NCBI GenBank assembly: GCA_030295235.1
Contig: AP026146.1
Coordinates: 124,001-188,000, forward strand
DNA: 64,000 bases
Direction of reading: 5' to 3'
Source: Fistulifera solaris
Lineage: Eukaryota
Shown: positions 2,174 through 39,949 of the stretch, in pieces
Layout: each line of letters begins with the position of its first letter
How positions within the stretch are numbered: position 1 is the first letter of the stretch
Made by a program: the position numbers and the translations under genes
The notes under the pieces: generated by a model
The model's database searches: none
Told to the model about the DNA's origin: nothing
The model's input: the letters and a program-made list of their open reading frames with translations, nothing else

Positions 2174-4178
2174 TTTTCCAGAATGTCTTCAACACCCGCC
2201 TATAACGATAAGACCTAACTTGCGCACCTTCCATTTTAGCATCATCAACGTGTATTCGTTCTTGTATTGATGATTGTGAAAGAAGTGGCACAAGAGACTA
2301 AACTCGCCGTTGTCGGTCGACAAGAACTAGGCACGTAGACACGATCTATTTCATCGATTACAAGTGCCTGTTGATAAATCGCCACACGTGATTTTCGTTT
2401 CTTGTATCGATACCTGGTAGTGACCTCAAAGCAGATTTCGATTGCTACGCTTTTCATAAAAACCTGTCAAAGTGCTACAACAGAATAAGCTACGATGAAG
2501 CTATTCTACAATATTTTAAACATTTTTAAGCTATCAATCGAAGGCATTTTGTAGAGCATTGGGGATAAACGGAAGACGATGTTTGATTGCGGGATAGCAT
2601 GGAGAAGCTAATGCAACAAATAACGATAATGAACAAACTTTAAAAACAGAGGTGACAGAGAGATGTAACACGATCCAATATCACAGAGACCATCATGATT
2701 TAGGAAGGAGCTGATCAATCACGAGGAAGCCAGAACAAATCAGCAATCATTCAAGCAGGGCAAACAAATTTTCCAACGAATTGGACCTAAAACGATTTGA
2801 TGATGGGGATAACCCTCGCATTTGTAACGCCGTCAGCATCCAGTGGCGACAAAAGATCTATGAAAAGTTCATCCTCTTCAAGGTTGTCGTCAAACCCTCG
2901 TATCAGGCATTCGAGCTCAGAATAGACCTCCCAGCTTGAAGGCTATGAAACGAACCCGAGCGTCCAAACTCAAATCCAAATGCTCGCAGGAAGACGCTGC
3001 TTCGATTTCCAGGAAAGCCCGTGATTCACACAAATTTTTTCTTTAATATTCATCACTTCACTAGCCAAATGCACCAAGGCCGGCATAGCTTCGTGACGAA
3101 AGGTAGAATCTGTGCTTGCTGACATGATCTTTGCTGTTGTTGGTTTGCTTACTTGCTGCGGACGTTCCAAACTTGCAATGAATTGAGCATTTGTATACTT
3201 GAAAAGCACCAAAACAGACACCAGTTTAAGTAAACGCTACATAAGCAACAAACAGAAGGCCTGCGAGCTTCGAAGGGACCCAGCATTGACCTCCATGGTG
3301 ACTTATCTTTCAACGCAGCGATTTCTTCACACAGTCTGCGAGTAAAACAACAATATACAGTACCCATACGTTGGAATACACTTTGTATCGTATATCGTAT
3401 AAGAAATCGAATAAAGAAAATAAAGGAACGTACCTGTCAGTACAAAAGCTACATACATGATTCTCGGTACTCAAAATCACGTACAAAATTGTACCGCAGC
3501 AAGTGTTTTCGCACAATTTTTGCTTTGAACCAATTATCACACCATGGTGTCTTCTTGCTTTCAAAACAACGTTATATCCTCTGATATGCTTTTGCATCAT
3601 CACCAAATGACTCTTGATCGTCCTGGTTATCGTGGGATGGCGCAGACAGCCGCGCCTCACCCTCCTAGTACGATCAAAACTCCAGTTCCCTCGCATGCTT
3701 CGAGTGCTTATCATCGTCGTCGTTTCTTGACGCCTCAAAGTGGCTTTCGTGAAGATCTGGATCGCTTCATTCCGTGTCGTGGTCGCATGCACATGGACTT
3801 GTGTCGTCGAAAGCTGAGTTCTGCGTCGAAACCTCGTGAATCATCGTCAAGTGATGCTTGCGCAAGTCCTCCTTCCGCAGCCCGTTCGACAAAACTTGCT
3901 TACGATAAGCATTTGCTGAGTACGATATGCAATGTTCCGACGAGTGATCTTGATGATGAACTGCAAATGAAGTCCATGTTACAATATGGTAACGTTTCGT
4001 CCTCCAAGACTCACAATCGTCGTCCTATCGTTGCTGCGGACCCTTTCGCACTGGACTTTTGCATTCCTCCACATTGTTGACGGCGGAAAAAGTCAACACA
4101 ACTCCCGCTCGCGTTATCCATTGTCGTCCTGAGGTAGTCCTTGATGCACCAGATATTGTGAATAATTTCTACTCTCAT

Positions 4179-4744: not shown

Positions 4745-7700
4745 ATGATTCTCTCGGGCTCAATCGCGTGCCGCCTTTGACCACGTGATGGACAATGTCC
4801 TCGGTCGTGGTGATGACTCTGCTCTCAAACGAGCGTTGGTGTCCACCGGATACGTGGACATCTACTTGCTTCTCGAGTTGCGCCCTTTGGACATCGGAGG
4901 TCTTGAGTTCCGTGACGATACAGGGGGAAACCATGCACGTCACCCGTGGTGATAAGACCTTGGTCTATGCATTTCTCGAGTATGTGGCTCATCGTGGCCG
5001 CTCTGGTGACCATATTGAAGATTGGTTGACGGTCACCGAAGACGATTTCAACGAAGTTCCGCCTCAGTCCTGAACGGGTGTTCGATCGTAGCAATCCCGA
5101 GGTTCCCGTTGTCCCCGTCCCCCCACCTGTTGCACCTCGTGCGCCAGGAATGTCCCTCGCAGCTCTTTTCAAGCGAGGAATCAAACGTGATCCTTCCCTC
5201 TTCCCTACTCTCAAGGACGAGAGTTACAATGACGCCTGGCATCGTTCTTTTGTCAATCAGGCCCGTGCTCAGGATGTCGAGGGAGGTGCTTAATGAGGAT
5301 TATGTCCCTACTACTGAGGAAGAAAAGGAGTTGTTCGATGAAAAGCAGAAGTTCCTCTACGCAGTTTTGGAAAGTAAGGTGCTTACTGACCAAGGAAAAG
5401 CCCTTATTCGTGACTACGAAGATACCTACGATGCTCAGAAGGTCTATGCGGCGTTGAAGCGTCATCATCTACAGTCTACAAAGGCTCAGATGACTTCTGC
5501 AACTATTCTTTCTTACATTACTTCAGTTCGTTATGGAGAAGGTCATCGTGGTGGTACTGCTGCAGGCTTCGTGCATGATTGGATTGATCAAGTCCGTCAG
5601 TACGAGCGAATGTCCGGTGACCCCTTCCCGATAAACACAAGAGAATTCTACTTGAGAATGCGGTCAGCACTGTTGCCGAATTTCGTCAAGTCAAGACTAG
5701 TGCCGATTTGGAATTAACCAAGACTGGCAAAGACCTGACTTTCGATCAGTACTGCTCTCTGTTGATTTCGGGCGTTGTGTTGCAGTCGATGAACAGGCCA
5801 AACGCAAATCTCGTAACAGTTCCGTTAACTTCCATGATACCATGGCCTTCGGTTCGTTGAATGAGTTTGGTACTGAGGAGTTAGACCTTTCTGGATATGC
5901 CCTGGATTCCGACGTTCCTACTTCTGATTGGCAGATTAATGCTACCAGTACTGAAAGACGTTCTGTTGGGTTCCGTGGTTCCCCTTCACCTGGTTCTGCT
6001 CCTATGACGCTGTATGCCGCGCGACCGTTGGTTTCAGCTGAGTGCTGACGCGCCAAATTTGGGATACTTTGGCTGATCGTGACAAGGCCGTCATCCTTGG
6101 ATTGCTTACTATTCCCGGACGTGATGTCAGCGCTGGACCTAACCGTGACTCGAATCCGACGTCACAGTCTGGTCGTCCGTCCAACCTCCGTCGTTCGGTT
6201 CACTTCCATGACTTTGACCCTAATGCATCTCAGGATACTCTCACTTCGGAACCTACTGAAGAGTTCCATGATGCAGCTCAAGAACCTACTAAGCCTGATG
6301 GCGAATCTACCGTGCTTGTGAACTCCGCTTCGCTCTAGTTCTACAATGGCTCCACACGATATACGCCGCCTTCTCGCGTTCTTCCCAGAGCAACACAAGT
6401 CGCCAAGTCAACACTTTGATAATTTATCGCGTGTCCCTTCAACACGGTCTCATGTAGATTCCCTACTTGATCGTGGTGCTAACGGTGGGGTTGCCGGATG
6501 TGACGTCCGAGTCATCCACAAGGACTTTCCCCATCGGCGTGTCAACATCCAAGGTATCGACAACCATCAGATGACTGATCTTGAGCTTGGTACTGTTGGG
6601 GGCGAGTAATGCGACGCAAAACGGACCGGTCATAGCCGTTTTCAACCAGTACGCGTTATATGGAAAAGGCCCTACCATTCACGCTTCTGGACAGTTGGAG
6701 CACTTCAAGAACCTCGTTGACGACAAGTCTATCCACGTGGGCGGTCGTCAATGCATCGTGACTCTTGATGGGTATGTGGTGCCTCTTAAGGTTCAACAGG
6801 GACTCGCTTCGCCTTCCTATTCGTCCATTTACTGACGAAGAATGGCGTTCTCTACCTCACGTCATTATGACGAGCAATCTTGACTGGGACCCCTCTGTAC
6901 TTGATCATGCAAATGATCAAGCTGATTGGTTCAATCGCATCAGCGATACACTAGAGTTGGAAGATCCCCGTCCACTCTTTGATGCATTCGGTGACTATCA
7001 TCACGGAGATAGTATAGACATTGAAGATCGCTTTGTCTTTACCCGATTGACTTCTCCTACTTTTCTGGCTACTGACAATATCATTGAAGTACGCTAACCT
7101 TACGGTATTGACCTCGCTGCTTTTCAGGCCATTGCCCGTCACTACGAGGTCTTTAACAACGAACTCGGCGCTTACGATAACGGTGATGATGTTGACGACG
7201 TGGCTGATACTCCCAGACCAGTTCTACCAGTCACGCCACGTACTATCCAGCGTCAAGACCCAGATCTAGGCCGACTTCGTCCTTACTTCGGTTGGATTTC
7301 CCATGACTTAATCAAGAAGACGCTCGAAAATACCACCCAGTATGGCCGCCTCCCACTTCCTGGAAGCACCCTCCTCAAGCGCTTCAAGTCATCAAATCCT
7401 GCTTTGAATGTTCATCGCCGTTCTGAAGACGTCGCGTGTGATATTGTCTACGCCAACACCCGGCTGTTGACAATGGGTCCACGTCTGCAGTCATTTTTGT
7501 TGGTCATGATACCATGGTTACAGATGTTTATGGTATCAAAACCGATAGCCAATTCCTCCGGACCTTAGAAGACAATATTCGCGAATGGGGAGCCCCTACT
7601 GCGTCTCCTTAGTGACCGCGCCCAAGTTCTCATCAGCAACGCGGTTCAAGATGTTCTTCGTACTTTTGCATCGGAGCATGGCAAAGTGAACCTCATCAAC

Positions 7701-20295: not shown

Positions 20296-21554
20296 TCAAT
20301 CTTCCTGCATGGCCTGCAACAGCGTTTCGTAATCGGCAACACATTGATCGTAGGCATGCGCACAAAAGTCTTTACGGGATTCCAATCCACCGACACTTTC
20401 AAGTTCTTGACCCATATGGATACCGACGGGCACATAGCGCACATTGCGCTGTTCCCCGGTACCGGCCTCAACGTAATCCGGAGGTGGACACAAGTCGTAG
20501 GAAACCATGGCCAGGGTATAGTAATGTGTGGGTACACCCGATTTATTGCCCATCAATCGGAACATATCAATGGTTTTACTATCAAAGGGCGCGCACGGCA
20601 CTTCTCCCGTCGAAGTGTCCCGACGATCCCGGCCTCCCGAAGGTGCTACCCACAACAGAGTTCCTCCTTCCTTGAAGGATTTGAGCATGGCACTCATGGC
20701 TTTCAAGTTTTGTTTCTGTTTCAACGGCTTTGTTTCCGCATCAGCATTGATGTGTTTTTTGGAATGAATGCAAATGAGATTGCGTCCCATGGAAAAGGGA
20801 ATGGCCAAAGCATCGGTCGTGACCTTGTGTCCCGCAACGTAGACCATGTCGGCCGCCTGTTTAGCATATCCGGCCAATTCCAAACACACCGACACGACTT
20901 GTGGATCTGCTTCCGATTGATGATTCGCCAGCAGTACTACATTTTCACCGCGTTCCAATTGCTCCATGGCTTGCTGTAAATTGTCTTTTCCCAAAACTTG
21001 CGATTTCTTCAAATTCATGACGGGCCGAAAGAAATCACAACCAAACGCGTAATAATCTACCGTATTCCCATTTTCGAGCTCCGGATCTTGACCTCGCAAT
21101 GCCGTATGTGACACATCAAATTGGTACTTGTTGGGACCCATACCAAATTGGAAGCCGTATTGAATGGCGGTCAAAATGCGCTGTACGACTTGTTGCGGAT
21201 GACAAACTTCGGTTTGTCCATCGAGAAATGCTTTTGACTGGCCGTCATGTATTCTTGCAAAAAATGTTGCAATAAGGGAAGCATTTGACTCGAAGAAGAA
21301 GAAGACGATAATTTGGCCTTCATTTCGGGAGAAATGCTTTGCATCAATTTCGTTTGTGCCATTTCCAGAGCTTGTGCAAATTCGGGGAGTAAGGCTTCTT
21401 CTGCTGTTGTAGCAGTAGTCGAGATATCTTCTTCGACGGAAGCCATGTGGCGGTAGGAAGTGGCCATGCGTGATGACGAGGGGACCCAAGCCAAGGCGGA
21501 AGGGAATAGGAGTGTCATGACGAGGACGACGAAGAAGTAGCGAAAGGCAATCAT
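20296..21554 (-). CDS. ATS1: Plastid glycerol-3-phosphate acyltransferase (one frameshift near 21230)
   Basis: Bipartite leader (ALAWVP); NVVLLANHQSEADP (HX4D), PFSMGRNLICIHSKKH, WVAPSGGRDR. Confidence 0.93.
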
Positions 21555-21946
21555 GTTTCAATGATATTGTTGGGTGAATACTTTGGATTCCGAAAGAACG
21601 AATGAATAGTGCCGTTGACAAGTAGATTGTCTAGTCTATCTATTCTAATGGTTTGTTTCCGTTTGATTTCGTTCTCTTCTTCTGAATGAGAAATGAAGAA
21701 AACGACGGAGAAGGAGAAGGAGGAAAAAAAAAAGGTCGATGGACGCCATCATTCGCACGACGTAAGCAAAAAAAAGGACGATTGCGTGTCTCGGTGGTGA
21801 ATGTCGTTTCGATATCCTGTACTGGTCGAAGAGTACTAGGGACAAAAGTACGTATTCACGTCCGTCCGTCTATACCATTCGTCTGTCAGTTCGTCGCAAG
21901 ACCGAACGTCATTCGTCCTATTTTGTTGGTTTGTTCAAATTGTTTG

Positions 21947-22338
21947 TGTTGAAACCACAATTTCAGCAACGATAATCACGTCCAATCAAGACAGCAATAG
22001 ATATCGTTCAAAAAACCGAGTAAAGATAACTTTCGTTTTACTTTAGATTCGCGAAACAACAATGAGCATTTCATCCTCGTCTCGTGCGATGGCCGCTTGC
22101 ATCTGCACACGGCGAGACTGACGTATTCCTCATCGTGTGGTTCCGAATCGCTATATTAACTAGTTCCCCTTCATGTCCCTTACGTTTGCCAAATTCGTGG
22201 TCACGACGGTTCAATTTCTTTTCGTATCGATGGCTGAGACGGAATTCTTTCAAAGTTCCGTGCGTCATCCGTGGGTGCACGTTTCGTCCGTCATGTCTCC
22301 GACGCCGGACGACTTTCCAGCCGTCTTCATTTCCAACA
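21947..22338 (-). repeat. 3' LTR of element 2
   Basis: TGTTG...CAACA ends; direct repeat of 27363-27754. Confidence 0.95.
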
Positions 22339-22422
22339 CACTCCTGTGAACCGTCGAGACAAAGAATCGTATCTTTCGTGTCACCTTTCGGCGGTGTCAC
22401 CGACGCCGGCAAATCCTCCTCT

Positions 22423-25400
22423 TCAAGACCGACGTTTGGTAAATTCATTACGCGCTGTCTCATCTTTCGGAACAAGCTTCCCTGCAACGGCTTCGTAAAA
22501 AAAATCCGCAAGCATTTCAGTTGTAGGGCAATACTCGACGCGAAGCTCCTTTCTCTTGATTCTGTCTGTCACAAAGAAATAGCGAATGTCGATGTGTCGA
22601 CTTCTTCTTCCGCTCGATGCCCTTCCGTTCCTTTCAAGCAAAATGGCGCTCTGGTTGTCCTGATAGACAACGTTGTCTGTCAGCCTCATACCCTGTGCTT
22701 CCAAAAAATTCCGAGTCCAAGTGATCAAGTGCATTCCGTCGTCAACGCCAACAAGCTCTGCTTCAGTCGAACTCTTCGTGTTAATTTTCTGTCGTGTCGA
22801 TCCGGAGATCGCGGACCCCTTCCCAAGTGACATGGTTACTCCAGTGTGACTTCGCATGTCATGGTGGACGGCAAAAGATGCATCAATCCACCATTGAATT
22901 CTGCAACAATCAGCCATTTCGAGGGTCAAAGGGAGTTTTGGTTCGCTCCGCAAATACCGAATGCATCGTGCCAATTTCTTCCAGTCGTCCACGTCCGGTT
23001 GTTTCACTCGTGTGGTCAAAAAGGCAACCGCTGTTTGTATGTCGATTCGCACCCGCTTGCAAAGATAAAGAAGTTTTGCAGTGAACCGATGAAACAGGTC
23101 CGCCTTCTCTGGTGGTAATTTCTCGGCCTCCGCATTGATTGTGAACAAATTTGCTGTTGCAGGGGTCACTGATATTCCATCAAAGTCGCTGGGAGCCTCG
23201 TTCAGCAGGTTTTCCACGTAATCATCCATTTTGAACTGCACCTTTCCGTCTTGTGAAAAATCCAGTGTCATGCCCAAATAATCATGAACATCTCCGCGTG
23301 TGGCGGTAACTGGTGCTTCGAGAGTCCCATACTTGTCATTGAACTTCGCTGCAATGTTGTCAAGCACTTCTTGGTCAGCGTGGGATATTTTCAAATCATC
23401 TACGTGCCAGCATATTGTGCATTGTTTTCCGTTTATCACTTTGTTCGCCACGCAACTGTCGTACTGGTTAATGACAAACCCCAGCTCATCAACCAGGAAT
23501 GATGAAATGTTTTTATAAAACAACAAAGCTGCTTGAAGCGTACCATACAGTGCCTTGGTCAGCTCCACATAAATCACGGGCTTTCCATTTTCAGTCACGA
23601 TGAATTTGCGGTACTTTTCCGGGTTCACTCGGGCAAGCAGTTCTGCCAAGGCTCCTTCCATCTTCATGTGTATCAATTCATCCATCTTGGAGTGCATGAA
23701 CGCACCCGGAATGTCAAGGGTCATTATTCGGCGTCTCTCAGAAGCATCAATCAGTGCCGTAAGGAACACTGACTCTGTTATTACAGTTGGCGAAGTTGTT
23801 TCTTGCTTGCTCTTGTAAAGTCGTTGGGGACGTCCATCAGCACATCCACGAGCCTTGATGCGACCACAGCGTTTCTGTTTCAGGTACATTAAGTATCGGA
23901 GCGCTTTTTTTAGTTGCTCTCTGCTTAAAGATTTCTTCTCTCGTGGTGCAATTGCATCCATGCGATCCAGTTGTCTCATTTCATCAACCACAGAGTCGGC
24001 GCCTTTCTTCCCAAAAACCTTGAGCCCGCGGTTGAGGGGCATCTGTTCAGTCAGAAACAATGATTCTGTCACAGCATCCATACTCTCTTTTAACGCGACT
24101 GGGTCTTGATCAGCCAGATATGCGTGGAGATGATCATAGCTCCAGCGGTTTTCTCGGTCGAAGGTTGATCCCATGGTTCCGCGGACCATATCTTACGTCC
24201 ATTCCAGCGATGATTCGTTCAGCTTCACTCATGTCTGGCCCTTCACCTACTGATTTGGCTTGGGACTCGTCCTCTCCCACTCCTGTGCTTCCGTGAGAGT
24301 CATGGTCGTCCCCCACTCCTGTAATTTCGGGCGGTTCATACTCCACTCCTGTATTTTCGACAGAGTCGTCTTCTGCTTGATCCATATCATCAGCGTTTTC
24401 TGCGGGATCTATGTCTGCAGGCTCAAAGTCTTGTGCGCCATCGATCTCTTCATCATTGTCTGGTTCGCTTTGATCGCTTTGATAACCATCGTTGGGCACT
24501 CCTGCGATGGCAAAAGGCTGAGCAAACGGTGCAGGATCATCATCAGGAGCAAAATCATCGGACGCGTAAGAGGCAGATGAATCGGATGCCGAGGAGGAGT
24601 CATCGTTGTCAGGTGAGTAATCGGAGTCGTGATCATCATCAATTTCGTCAGGGTGATCAGGAAATTCGATACCGAGGCGGTTTGCAAATGTGAGTGTCTT
24701 GGGCATTTTTTGTTTGGCACCGAGCTTGTTTACCCGGTCAATCACATCATTGGGCATGTTAAGTGGTGTCCAGTATTGTCGGTGAAGTCTGCGGCCAGTG
24801 GTCAGGGATAGAAAATAGTGTCCGCCTTGCTCATTCCCAGTAGGACCAAGGCAGATGGCCCCGGTGGTGCGAGGGCGCATGTCCGGGCGTATGGGCCTCA
24901 TGTGTTTGGACGTAACTGCCAAACTCGCATTGAATATGCTTTTTGGCCGCCGAGGTGTTTGCCAGTGAGTAGATACCGTGGTGATAGTGTGTTTGACACC
25001 CCGTCCTTGTGCGGGAAAGCGTTTAGCCAGAAGACAGCATTACCAACTAGACGTGCAAGCATGAGCCTCGTGGGATACGGGTAAATGGCAAGAGATTGTA
25101 TCCACATCGCGACGCGATCTTTTACAGTTCGAATGAACCTCTCAATTTCCGGTACGTGTTCATCGCGTGATGTGAGGTTGAACGTTATTTTAGGAAAGTC
25201 CACCTCCAGAGGAGCAAATTCAAGGTCGGCATTAATGACGGTGACTCTGAAGCCACGCCGTTCATACAGTTTGATGACATGAGAGAGTGCATTCGATACT
25301 GTGGGAATCTCTCGGTTGTCAAGATCTTCGGCCGTCCCAAAATGTAAGTTCGCGCGAGGTGGTCACAAGAAAAGGCACTTTGTTGATGTGTAAGATGTCG

Positions 25401-27153
25401 ATGCCCAGCACCACGTCTCTATACTGATCAATAATATCAGATGGGACTCCATTAATCTCACTCGAACTTCGTGGTGGTGTGCGTGAATGGTCTTTCCATA
25501 CAGTGATCCCAGATTTGGACCAAAGATGTCATTGGCTGCACGGATGTCATCTCTGGATACGTCAAGATTTTTTATGAGGTTGTGATCCACTATTTCTTCG
25601 TATTGGCGGTCGGCTTGGGTACATCATGATGTTCTGAATCTGGCGTGCACGGACGGCAGCATTGTATGCTCGCTCGTTGTATCCCCGACATCTTTTGGCG
25701 CCACTGTCGTCACCATTGCCCAATCGTAACCTCTGTCTGCAGAACTATCTACCGCGTATAGCCCTTTTGCTGTCGGTTTGAAGAGAAGGGTCCCATGTCC
25801 AAGTTTCACGTGGAAAGCATTGTCAACAGCACTGTCGTAGCTCACATGATAGTATTTTTGGACTACGAACAGGGATAAGATGTTTGCAATCCCGCTGAGG
25901 ATCATACCACACAGGCTCAGGGAACGAACCCAGATAGCCCTTTTGATTTGTCACACGGACTCCAGCATTACACCTTACTCGCATTGGCTGGTCCACTCTG
26001 TGAATACCATGCAACAGCTCCCCGCTGGAAATGAGGCACACTGTGGAGCAACTATCGAGAAGGAGCTGCGTCTTCGTTCCATTCCGTTGTGGTCAAGAAC
26101 TTGAAAGCATGAATCCAGCCTACCTACATAATCCATTGTATAGGCGGCAACTTCCTCACTATCATTATCCGCGCATTGTCTAGTAGGAACTGGGCATCAT
26201 CAGCTGACTCATCAGGTGCAGCGGGACCATTTCCACTGCTCCCATTGCTTTTACCTCCACTGCGACGCGACCGCGTCCACGTCCACCATTTGTTGCTGCT
26301 CGGTCACCACGTCCACGTCCGGTATTGCCCTCATTGTAGAAAGCAAGGCCACCTCCATCCTGCCGTCCGCGGTCTCTAGTACCCGATCGGTAGTTGACCA
26401 AGCAGTCGTAGGCAGCTCCGAGTGTCTGGGGGTACATTTGGGTCCCAAGCGTGAAGTTGTTCTCGATGCTGCGGAGTAGCTCACCATAGCGGTCTTGATC
26501 GCTGTTTACTAGGAAGCGGACAGCTAGGAACCGTTGTCGGATCTTACTCTTCGCTGCTGACAGTTCGGTTTCAGTTGGGTTTCCACCATCAGCTGCAGTC
26601 TCATCTAGCTCATCCTGAACCTTAGTCTGAGAATAGCCAACCTCTGTCCCTAGTCTCTCCAGGTTTGCCACGCACTCTCGGAATCTCTCATAGTATTCAT
26701 TGTTGGACATGTACCGGGTCTGCTTGCATTCCAATAGGCTGTTCTCGGCATTCACCCAGGAGTGGAATTCATACTGACGCGTCTGCCCGATTGTCATGCA
26801 GCTCCGAATGAGCTTCAGCAACTCAATCACATCGCTCATAGCACTAATTCTGTCCCAGCTCTCATGCGCCTCCATCCTGTTCCGCAGTGCTTGCGAACAT
26901 TGTCCTAACACCGCAGGAAACACCCGACTTGCGGCAGCCTCGCGCCGATTAAGCTTTTCAAGGTATGCATTCCGTGCCGTGCGCCATAACTCAAATTGGA
27001 CTCGATTATCAGAATCTATAGGCGGCTCAGGTTCAACCAGATCATCGGTAAGTTCTACCATTGCCACGCCGGTATTCTCCGGCATGAGGGTACTCCCTGC
27101 TGACAAATATGGCAAGTCGACGAGTTGTCTCTGTGTAAGTCTCTCTTCCTGAT
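22423..27153 (-). CDS. gag-pol of element 2 (frameshifted)
   Basis: gag (LGQCSQALR), protease LLDSCST, integrase HVPEIERFIRTVK, RT (KARGCADG, DIPGAF, WHVDDL), RNase H (IDASF, SSTEAEL, QDNQS, HIDIRY). Confidence 0.9.
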
Positions 27154-27362
27154 GTGACATCATACACGGCGCCCTCAAGTCCTTCGATTTAGCCTGTGAA
27201 TGTCCCTCCACGTCTGTTGGCCCGATTGCGGTTTCGATTGCGACGACCTTGGCCAGGCGGATTTTCATTTCCATCGCTTCGCGACTCGGTCTGGGGCTGC
27301 AGGCCCACCGCTGTTGCTCGACATGATTTTTTTTTAACAAAAAAGCTTTGTTGTTTCGCGAA

Positions 27363-27754
27363 TGTTGAAACCACAATTTCAGCAACGATAATCACGTCCA
27401 ATCAAGACAGCAATAGATATCGTTCAAAAAACCGAGTAAAGATAACTTTCGTTTTACTTTAGATTCGCGAAACAACAATGAGCATTTCATCCTCGTCTCG
27501 TGCGATGGCCGCTTGCATCTGCACACGGCGAGACTGACGTATTCCTCATCGTGTGGTTCCGAATCGCTATATTAACTAGTTCCCCTTCATGTCCCTTACG
27601 TTTGCCAAATTCGTGGTCACGACGGTTCAATTTCTTTTCGTATCGATGGCTGAGACGGAATTCTTTCAAAGTTCCGTGCGTCATCCGTGGGTGCACGTTT
27701 CGTCCGTCATGTCTCCGACGCCGGACGACTTTCCAGCCGTCTTCATTTCCAACA
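27363..27754 (-). repeat. 5' LTR of element 2
   Basis: Direct repeat of 21947-22338. Confidence 0.95.
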
Positions 27755-27892
27755 GTTTGCCCTCATTCTCATCGGCAACTCATCGTTCGTGTCGTCCAGC
27801 GTTTCTCATTCTTTCATCATCGAGTTGCAAAAGTGCCACTTGCTCTCCTATCTCTCTTTTCCACGCGCTATACGATTCCATTCTATCCAAAA

Positions 27893-28795
27893 ATGGCTGC
27901 ATGGATAGGAATTCTCGTGGCGACTACCATTCTTCTCATTACTGTCTATCTCTATCAACTCGTCTCTCGACCATCCAAGATATTACCACTCGAAGATTTT
28001 GTGCAAGTTCCTTTGATTCGAAAAGAGATTTTATCGCATGATACACGTCGTTTTACCTTTGCCTTGCCCCGACCGGATGCTGTCCTAGGATTGCCAGTGG
28101 GTCAACATGTCGCCTTGCGCTTTCAACAAGCCGACGAAACATGGGTCCAACGCAGTTATACACCGACCCAACAATCGGTGCCGGGCGAATTTTCCCTCGT
28201 CATAAAAGTGTATTCACCGGCACCTCCTAAATTCCCCACCGGAGGAGCCTTGTCGCAACATTTGGATTCCTTGGCCATCGGAGATACTATTGGGATGAAA
28301 GGACCGAAAGGTCATATTGAGTGGTTGTCCTCCTCGAAAGGACAATTCTCGGTCAAGCCTTTGGGAAAACCACTCGAACAACGAACTTGTCAATATGTGG
28401 GCATGATGGCAGGAGGGACGGGAATTACTCCCATGCTGCAACTCTTGCATGCCATCTTTGCCGATCCGGACCCATCTTTGAAGGTTAAACTGATTTATGC
28501 GAATCAAACGGAAGATGATATTCTGGTACGACAGGAATTGGAGCATTTGCAACAGCAATATCCACAACATTTTTCATTGTGGTATACCTTGGATCGTCCA
28601 CCGACCCAGGGATGGAAGTACAGTACCGGATTTATTTCACCCGAAATGGTACAACAGCATTTGGTGTTTGCCGAGGATACCAACAAAACACAGACTCAAT
28701 TCTTCCTATGTGGCCCAGCACCCATGATCAAATTTGCTTGCTTACCAGCGTTGGAGCAAGCAGGCTACAACAAGGACAACTGGGTTATCTTTTAA
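27893..28795 (+). CDS. CBR1: NADH-cytochrome b5 reductase with N-terminal membrane anchor
   Basis: SHDTRRFTFAL, LGLPVGQH, RSYTP, MAGGTGITPM, LIYANQTE, CGPAPM. Confidence 0.93.
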   Translation: MAAWIGILVATTILLITVYLYQLVSRPSKILPLEDFVQVPLIRKEILSHDTRRFTFALPRPDAVLGLPVGQHVALRFQQADETWVQRSYTPTQQSVPGEFSLVIKVYSPAPPKFPTGGALSQHLDSLAIGDTIGMKGPKGHIEWLSSSKGQFSVKPLGKPLEQRTCQYVGMMAGGTGITPMLQLLHAIFADPDPSLKVKLIYANQTEDDILVRQELEHLQQQYPQHFSLWYTLDRPPTQGWKYSTGFISPEMVQQHLVFAEDTNKTQTQFFLCGPAPMIKFACLPALEQAGYNKDNWVIF

Positions 28796-37516: not shown

Positions 37517-39949
37517 CTACATCGAACAGGGAAGGCAGGTGGACAGTTCTTTACGGACCACCGCAGTAGCGTCGACCATGTTACGCAGGGCTGCAATTGT
37601 TTCAGGCCATCCTCTTGTTTTTAAACCGCAATCAGGATTTACAACCGTCTGATCCAAATCAAGCACCGTCAGAAAGCTCCTAAGTTTTGCCTCAATCTCC
37701 TCTTTGGAAGGTACGACTGGGGAATGAATATCATACAATCCAGGACCAAAGCCTTTCGTGTACCCAATGCTTTTGAATGCCTTGAGCGTTGCATTGTCGC
37801 TGCGAGCATTTTCAATCGAGTTCACATCCGTGTCCATGCGATCGATTGCTATTGAAGAAAAAGACAAGAAATTAGTCCGTAGTATCCGCATTCTCTGAGA
37901 AAAGTGTACGCACCATGCATGCAATCCTGGAATTCACAGTAGCACATGTGGGTATGAATCTGAGTCTCGCTCTTCGCGCCGGCGGTTGATAGACGAAATG
38001 CATCCACTGCCCAACCTAAGTACTCATTTCTTTCTGTTTCACGAAAAGGCATCCCTTCTCGCAATGCAGGCTCGTCGACTTGAATGACAATGCATCCCGC
38101 CTCTTCCAAGTCCCGAATTTCGTCGCGAATGCAAAGGGCAACTTGGAACGCTTGTTCCCTGCGAGAAATGTCGATCCGCGGGAAGGACCAATTGAGAATA
38201 GTGATGGGACCGGTTAACATTCCCTTGACTGGTTTCTCGGTGAGAGACTGCGCCACTTTATACTCACGCGTCGTCATGGGAAAAGGACGCGAGATGTCAT
38301 TCCAAAAGACCGGGGGCCTCACGCAACGACTTCCAAACGACTGTACCCATCCGTGCTGCGTAAAGACAATACCTTCCAATTGTTCTCCAAAAATTCCACC
38401 ATGTCCGTGCGCTCCGGTTCTCCATGCACCAAAATGTCCAAGCCCAACGTCTCCTGGACACCAATGCAATAAGCAATTTGCTGATCCATGGCAGCCTGGT
38501 ACTCGGAATCATTTAACAAACCTTTCTTCCACGCAGCGCGAACACGACGAATCGCAGAAGTTTGCGGAAAGGAACCGATCGTGGTCGTCGGTAGAGGTGG
38601 CAATCCTTTCAGTTGCTCCTTTCGACGCTCAAGGTAGTCGCTACTGCGACGAAAGTCACTCAGCTGAACTGCTTGGAGACGATCTCGAACAGACAAACTT
38701 TGTGATGTCACTCGAGAATCGACAAAGCTTTTCCATGCGCTTTCGTAATCTGCGAGCAAATGATTGCTGTCTTCGCCATCCAACATGCACCCGGCAATTT
38801 TGGCAAGTCGAACTACTTCATCCAGCTTCTCTTTGGCGAATGCCATGACCTGAACAGCGGGGTGATTCTCCGCAATCAATTTCTCTTCGCGTTCCACTGT
38901 CCAGGGAAGAAATTGCAAGGTGCTGGATGGCTGGATGCGGAACGCAATTCCCTTGCTTACCAAACTCTTTAGAACGGGCAAAACCTTTGCAGGATCAAAT
39001 TTCCAAACATTTCTCGCGTCCACCAGTCCACAGCCAATCGCCTTGGTAGCACCATACTTGTCCACCAGTGCGAGCGTGTCACCTCGAGTGAAATCCAGAG
39101 ACACCACATGGATGCCGTTGGTGGCGGACATGAGCCACTGGTAGTTGGCATCCCCCACATCGTCCATGTACGAGACCATGTTGATCGTTACATCCGGCGC
39201 AAGGATCGCGGGATACGCCGCATCCAGAAGGGGAGTAATGCTGGGATCATTGAATACCAGACAAGGCTCATGGATCTGTATTTCCTTCACACCCAAACCC
39301 ACCAGCTCCTGCATCAACGCCTGATATACCGGAAGCAACAAAACGACCAGCGTACTTTTCGACATACCGGGAGCGGATATCTTGGTCAAGTAAGCAAACG
39401 AAACTGGGCCCAGAAGAACAGGAGTCGCACAGTCCGCTCCCAACGCTGTGACACCGCGACGGCAGTCTTCAAGGAAGCGAGAGAAATCTGCGTGGATCTG
39501 GGAGGTTTCATCGTACTCGGGGACCATGTAATGATAGTTACTTGTAATCCACTTCTTCATGCCTGATTTGTGTATGTGTGTGAGAGAGAGAGTGCCGGTG
39601 ATCGAAAGAGAAAAATACAAGTCAACTTACTCAACGCTGGAGCACCATCGATGCCGCGTGCCATGGCAAAGAGACGATCGATTCCAGGAGGCTGGTTTGC
39701 AAAGCGTTTGGGGACAATCCCCAAGCTCTCTGTCATCATGAGAACAAAGTCGTAAAGATACTGATCACCTACAGTGATTTTAGTAAGTCCAGCGTGCAAC
39801 GCCCAAGCCGCGTCTTCCACTGAACGAGCCACGTGCAACAAATCATCCTGAGAAATGGATCCTTTCCAGTACTTTTCCAAGGCAAACTTGAGTTCGCGGT
39901 TCGGTCCCATGCGGGGGAAGCCGAGCGAAGAAGTGGTAACAAATTTCAT
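37517..39949 (-). CDS. METE: Cobalamin-independent methionine synthase (introns 39563-39630, 37849-37913; frameshift near 38390)
   Basis: [77 protein letters not shown]. Confidence 0.97.

Follow-up and report, generated by a model that had tools for sequence, protein, structure and literature searches.

A Copia-type LTR retrotransposon of Fistulifera solaris with a primer-binding site complementary to its own LTR: probable Tf1-like self-priming

In the standard model of reverse transcription in LTR elements, the primer-binding site (PBS) is regenerated from the primer when the plus strand is made. To our knowledge, self-priming, wherein an element uses its own RNA as the primer, has been established experimentally only for Tf1, and elsewhere it has been predicted from sequence. 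In the sections of PMC7175516 that describe Tf1 of S. pombe, the RNA's initial 11 bases anneal to the PBS, and RNase H cleaves between bases 11 and 12. Self-priming is predicted for 12% of plant elements in the parts of Neumann 2019 (PMC6317226) that deal with primer sites, and among Copia elements this prediction concerns the TAR lineage. The same parts of the study cite an earlier self-priming proposal for Houba and Osr-1. Its Methods recognize a self-primer where the 5' LTR is complementary, over 10 bp or more, to a region that starts 0-5 bp past the LTR. Self-priming is therefore not new for Copia elements, and the novelty for this order that the original prediction implied was overstated, as far as the cited sections on TAR reach (PMC6317226).

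We describe here an element located in a 64-kb stretch of DNA from Fistulifera solaris (the window). It is like Tf1, Tf2 and the other members of the Tf1/sushi group (Ty3/gypsy chromoviruses) in that its PBS is complementary to its own sequence and the resulting fold-back would direct the primer 3' end into U5. In contrast to Tf1, the duplex comprises 15-16 bp rather than 11, and the transcription start and the cleavage site are predicted. Members of the Tf1/sushi group carry a Gypsy-type reverse transcriptase (RT) in a PR-RT-RH-IN order. The RT found here is of the Copia type (RVT_2), which places the element outside that group, and an integrase-like region preceding the RT is a lead only. 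The element shares its superfamily and the operational signature with plant TAR elements, including Houba and Osr-1. It differs from them in host group, and the likeness is one of signature; TAR priming is itself a prediction in the sections cited (PMC6317226).

Other Copia elements also depart from the usual tRNA primer. The half-tRNA-primed elements Osser, Bryco and Bianca likewise have a PBS without a match to a tRNA 3' end. Theirs is conserved and corresponds to a stretch inside tRNA-Met or tRNA-Ile, according to the pertinent sections of PMC6317226, whereas the PBS examined here varies together with the element's own LTR. Fungal GalEa elements, as covered by the priming-related passages of PMC5445492, are also without a tRNA-type PBS and have a conserved structured sequence (the Conserved Hairpin Site) at the PBS position. 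In those passages the authors never detected a U5 inverted repeat complementary to that site, whereas a complement within the LTR is the central feature of our element. Like the CoDi elements, the Ty1/copia-like retrotransposons that diatoms carry (Maumus et al. 2009, PMC2806351), it is a diatom-type Copia element whose relatives are mainly metagenome and diatom proteins. In the main text of that study the terms 'primer binding', 'tRNA', 'PPT' and 'priming' do not occur, and our literature search found no report of self-priming in diatom elements.

The element and its genomic setting

The features of the element are listed in Table 1. Its RVT_2 RT, TG...CA LTRs and 5-bp target site duplication (TSD) identify it as a Ty1/copia-type element, in agreement with the Copia-order assignment made originally. 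A 5-bp TSD is the rule among plant elements (93.4% in the corresponding section of PMC6317226). The 392-nt LTR ends were established by reading both ends and by a scripted comparison; the automated repeat search alone gave 300 nt. Because the two LTRs are identical and the target duplication is present, the evidence suggests a recent insertion. Given such an insertion the family may still be active and amenable to experiment. Self-comparison of the 64-kb window revealed no further copies.

Table 1. Features of the element and its primer site, in window coordinates
Feature	Position	Strand	Basis or remark
Whole LTR retrotransposon, Ty1/copia type, 5808 bp	21947..27754	-	LTR pair and self-BLAST
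5' LTR, 392 nt, TG...CA	27363..27754	-	0/392 differences from 3' LTR
3' LTR, 392 nt	21947..22338	-	both element ends read and compared
TSD CAAAC, upstream copy	27755..27759	-	sequence reading
TSD CAAAC, downstream copy	21942..21946	-	sequence reading
TCA, initiator-like, abuts arm	27479..27481	-	putative +1 A at 27479
LTR-internal arm, candidate self-primer, TTGTTGTTTCGCGAA(T)	27463..27478	-	inverted-repeat search; presumed first bases of R
Small hairpin AAC-GAAA-GUU	27444..27453	-	predicted; 10 nt past LTR arm
Candidate PBS, TTCGCGAAACAACAA	27348..27362	-	complementary to LTR arm; non-TGG
Probable gag ATG	27322..27324	-	23 nt past PBS; opens short frame only in window
Gag-like open frame, 364 aa in window	26183..27274	-	24 homologues, E <= 1e-3
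RVT_2 domain (PF07727, Copia-type RT)	23197..23880	-	Pfam E 2e-15, residues 105-332 of frame 24192-22426
Candidate polypurine tract, AGGAGTG	22339..22345	-	putative, from reading; weakly purine-rich, abuts 3' LTR
Arm copy within 3' LTR	22047..22062	-	sequence reading

Searches with Pfam matched no family to the gag-like frame or to the fragments between gag and RT, and they gave no integrase domain even at an E of 10. For the 700 amino acids that precede the RT of a related metagenome locus (L001, see below), the nearest ESM Atlas clusters carry gag_pre-integrs, Pol_BBD, SH3_retrovirus and rve, and this integrase-like match (best score 0.94, 175 shared features) is to be read as a lead only. 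The RT of L001 (RVT_2, E 2.3e-15) occupies residues 1115-1344 of 1650. Among named sources, the diatom Nitzschia inconspicua supplies the closest RT relatives (58% identity), and metagenome proteins reach up to 70%. Among the best 120 matches, the only organism names are those of diatoms, given for three Nitzschia inconspicua proteins.

The neighbours of the element are ordinary eukaryotic genes, including those for an acyltransferase (20299-21621) and an alanyl-tRNA synthetase. A gene for a FAD/NAD-binding oxidoreductase, which ends at 28792, adjoins the 5' LTR across the interval 27755-28010, and the LTR points away from it. Because the 5' LTR adjoins this gene and its first conserved domain begins near 28010, the insertion lies in the gene's upstream region.

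The coding region of the element is split into several frames in the window. There is only one public run that contains this DNA (X1, with 0.85 of sampled words), which was available as Logan contigs; the contigs of two further runs, X2 and X3, hold next to nothing of it. Depth in X1 is even over the element and its flanks, and the signal is hence DNA-like. A 3876-nt X1 contig differs from the window (22423-27391) by 9 substitutions and 26 gaps, which are mostly of a single letter. Letters left out in X1, such as those at 24144 and 24947, coincide with the overlaps where the pol frames switch. Thus, most of the frame breaks are probably indel differences between assemblies, and probably errors, rather than signs of element decay. 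Indel errors of the window may split other genes as well, as a methionine synthase frame (38322-39620) has only parts of two domains.

Complementarity between the LTR and the primer-binding site

The observation that drew attention to this locus was a perfect complement between the LTR and the nucleotides immediately following it, and both rereading and an inverted-repeat search agree with it. Over 15 nt, positions 27362-27348 (TTCGCGAAACAACAA) are perfectly complementary in antiparallel orientation to 27478-27464 (TTGTTGTTTCGCGAA). Inclusion of the last LTR base (27363) extends the duplex to 16 bp, with arms at 27348-27363 and 27463-27478 that are 100% complementary and 99 nt apart. The complementary stretch begins exactly at the first base past the LTR, which is where the minus-strand primer must end. 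By the operational definition given above, the element thus has a candidate self-primer of 15-16 bp at offset 0. Other details of the original prediction are also borne out: no TGG-type PBS follows the LTR, the sequence TCATT is present at 27481-27477, and the orientation of the pairing between arm and PBS directs the 3' end of the primer into U5.

Such a complement is longer than those generated by shuffling. Among 5000 dinucleotide shuffles of the LTR, none produced a complement of at least 15 nt at offsets 0-5 past the LTR (the longest was 12), and 43 produced one of at least 10 nt. When RNA corresponding to 27479-27330 is folded, the helix is present in both the MFE and the centroid structures. 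The MFE of -41 kcal/mol compares with a shuffle mean of -26.6, which gives a z of -4.16 for this single sequence. Scans for tRNA genes gave none in the window and none in the related loci L001-L007.

These relatives were obtained with a gag profile built from 24 homologues, which led to seven metagenome loci (L001-L007) whose gag proteins are 37-49% identical. The region before gag is readable in six of the seven, and L005 was excluded. We placed the LTR ends of the relatives by a conserved motif, which reads TTTCAACA (TTTTAACA in L001), rather than by LTR pairs. The same profile found no relatives among viral contigs and genome contigs. Five further candidates (L008-L012), found in viral contigs by the DNA pattern of arm plus LTR end, were rejected as chance matches, with no complement after CAACA and no other likeness.

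In five of the six readable relatives a complement persists at the corresponding position, 99-104 nt upstream of the LTR end (Table 2). The arms themselves are diverse, with variants such as CGCGAA, CGCAAA, TACGAA and CTAC and a wholly different arm (TAATTTCTATCAGA) in L004, so that at least five distinct versions exist. No PBS among the sites starts with TGG. The dinucleotide CA directly precedes the arm in all six arm-bearing elements, and its A is unpaired in each. The gap between the PBS and the gag ATG is 2-26 nt in the relatives.

Table 2. Complementary arms of the relatives. Pairs are Watson-Crick pairs in the first 15 nt past the LTR (15 in the window element); shuffles are dinucleotide shuffles that reach the observed arm length, in a test run without L001
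Locus	Arms	Complement	Pairs	Shuffles
L001	TTGTTGTTCGCAAA / TTTGCGAACAACAA	14 nt	14	
L002	TTGTTGTCTAC / GTAGACAACAA	11 nt; 13/15 with one mismatch	13	5/5000
L003	GTTGTTTACGA / TCGTAAACAAC	11 nt	12	7/5000
L004	TAATTTCTATCAGA / TCTGATAGAAATTA	14 nt	14	0/5000
L006	TTGTTGTTTACGAAT / ATTCGTAAACAACAA	15 nt	14	0/5000

The exception is L007, which has kept a PBS (TTCGCAAACAACAA) and the LTR end. Over the 392 nt upstream, nothing complementary to that PBS reaches 6 nt. At about 2185-2200 it reads CTC-GAAT where the others read CTCA, arm, GAAT, which looks like a deletion of approximately 12 nt. We take L007 to be a dead copy, although it counts against the pairing rule. A 9-nt pair noticed in this locus was rejected as a PBS pairing, as it falls off the PBS once the true LTR end is located. 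Thus, the expectation that relatives preserve the pairing between LTR and PBS is borne out by compensatory change in five of the six and fails in L007, where the LTR arm has been lost.

Covariation was evaluated on two sets of sequences. In a set of six with L007 included (A2), 87.4% of the cells are paired and 9 of 16 pairs have changed on both sides, and the best slid control reaches 48.8%. The corresponding values for a set of seven to which L001 was added (A4) are 89.1%, 7 of 16 and 50.5%. On both sets, none of 500 shuffles reaches the observed percentage paired, both double-change counts or the covariation score, where the sample is at most seven related sequences and the shuffle counts are therefore not probabilities. 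The number of further pair types is not significant, as 21 of 500 shuffles attain it on A2 and 213 of 500 on A4. Given five sequences and no input structure, RNAalifold also predicts this 16-pair helix.

How reverse transcription may begin

We consider Tf1-like self-priming to be the most likely way in which reverse transcription of this element starts, with a probability of roughly 0.65. Transcription would start in the 5' LTR, at 27479-27478 or slightly ahead of it, and the first 15-16 nt of the RNA would fold back over some 100 nt of R-U5 to pair with the 15 nt directly past the LTR. The element's RNase H would cleave the RNA on the 3' flank of this duplex, and the freed 3'-OH would be extended through U5 and R to give minus-strand strong-stop DNA. 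Plus-strand synthesis would then copy the attached primer and so remake the PBS. We infer the transcription start, the RNase H cleavage and the priming itself from the anatomy of the element and from the position, orientation, conservation and covariation of the pairing. Since the PBS would be remade from the primer in this way, the two would be expected to co-evolve. The conserved CA with its unpaired A would fit an initiator with +1 at 27479.

Several observations count against this reading: the arm has been lost in L007, uninterrupted pairing in L002 and L003 extends over just 11 nt, and X1 differs by one letter in an arm. Specifically, an X1 LTR contig is without one letter at 22053, within the arm copy of the 3' LTR, and the arm would then read TTGTTGTTTGCGAAT, which matches a PBS like that of L007. 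The Tf1-like mechanism proposed originally retains real pairing, orientation into U5 and compensatory change on its side, and is weakened by the arm loss in L007.

One alternative is that the helix between LTR and PBS has a structural or regulatory role, such as PBS masking, packaging, dimerization or translation control, while a host RNA, for example an internal tRNA fragment, primes at the site. Long-range pairings near the 5' end occur in elements primed by tRNA, and an 8-nt palindrome (TTCGCGAA) in both arms of the window element (27355-27362 and 27464-27471) could pair two RNAs. This palindrome is missing from the arms of the relatives, which are non-palindromic, and we accordingly rejected it as a functional core. 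A conserved host RNA would also be expected to keep the PBS constant, whereas the site varies at many positions, is wholly replaced in L004, and always changes together with the LTR arm. A conserved host tRNA could not keep pace with this joint variation, and none of the sites begins with the TGG of an ordinary tRNA-type PBS. A second PBS would not fit before gag, since the site lies just 23 nt from the probable gag ATG in the window, and the relatives have 2-26 nt there. We regard this alternative as unlikely.

It is also conceivable, although we judge it unlikely, that the element is self-primed by an arm that lies inside the transcript. The transcription start would then be further upstream and the primer would carry a 5' tail, so that only the 3' cut matters, and the mechanism would vary the Tf1 scheme rather than copy it. 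For priming, a 3'-OH where the duplex ends should suffice, and no TATA-like motif is evident by reading approximately 30 nt upstream of 27479. However, conservation among the relatives starts abruptly at CTCA, just before the arm, and the duplex always stops at CA, as expected if the RNA begins there. That the complementarity is a functionless product of chance or of faulty assembly is scarcely credible. The X1 contig does differ from the window by the 9 substitutions and 26 gaps noted above in 3.9 kb, and one difference falls in an arm. Nevertheless, a 15-nt complement is reached by 0 of 5000 shuffles, and the same architecture recurs with different arm sequences in five independent metagenome contigs.

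If self-priming from the start of the RNA, which we prefer, is extended to the relatives, a diatom (stramenopile) Copia clade might have dropped tRNA primers in favour of self-priming, independently of Tf1/sushi and perhaps also of TAR. We offer this broader proposal only tentatively, as a possibility that falls somewhat short of even odds. If true, primer and PBS drift together in these elements, even to complete replacement as in L004, and the elements would be immune to host defences aimed at tRNA-type primer sites. A diatom Copia clade that preserves the signature through compensatory change would mean that the strategy extends over both LTR superfamilies and over distant groups of eukaryotes. 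A practical consequence is an annotation rule for diatom elements, for which LTR finders that seek tRNA-type primer sites will report 'no PBS'. This rule would also mark the copies able to replicate: if self-priming is right, the armless L007 cannot replicate on its own and should be dead.

Further observations on the LTR region and its RNA

Some X1 contigs match the ends of the LTR (5' LTR 27455-27691) at 85-95% and skip either 27470-27644 or both 27456-27518 and 27550-27690. Diverged LTR relatives with another U3/R junction therefore exist in that genome.

The first 141 nucleotides of L001 (1-141) repeat its tail (5271-5411) with 99.3% identity. In this locus the end of pol is followed by a single LTR, then the PBS and the start of gag, and the gag-pol frame is uninterrupted over 1650 amino acids. 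This layout is explained either by two LTRs that were collapsed by the assembler or by a one-LTR circle.

An Rfam search of 27250-27800 returned three matches that were dismissed as hairpin-shape noise, with scores of 27.1, 23.1 and 16.6 against gathering scores of 100, 70 and 100, respectively. The small hairpin predicted downstream of the LTR arm takes the form AAC-GNRA-GUU in the window element, L002, L003, L004 and L006, with loops GAAA, GAAA, GAGA, GUAA and GAAA, respectively, and L001 and L007 differ at this position. Its three pairs are without covariation in the five folded sequences, as two are invariant and one is broken in one of the five.

In L004, and in that locus alone, there is a second inverted repeat of 11 nt (TCCATACGTAA / TTACGTATGGA, 2977-2987 and 3083-3093). 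Its overlap with the PBS arm covers the final 3 nt of that arm, it does not nest with the main helix, and it could represent an alternative conformation.
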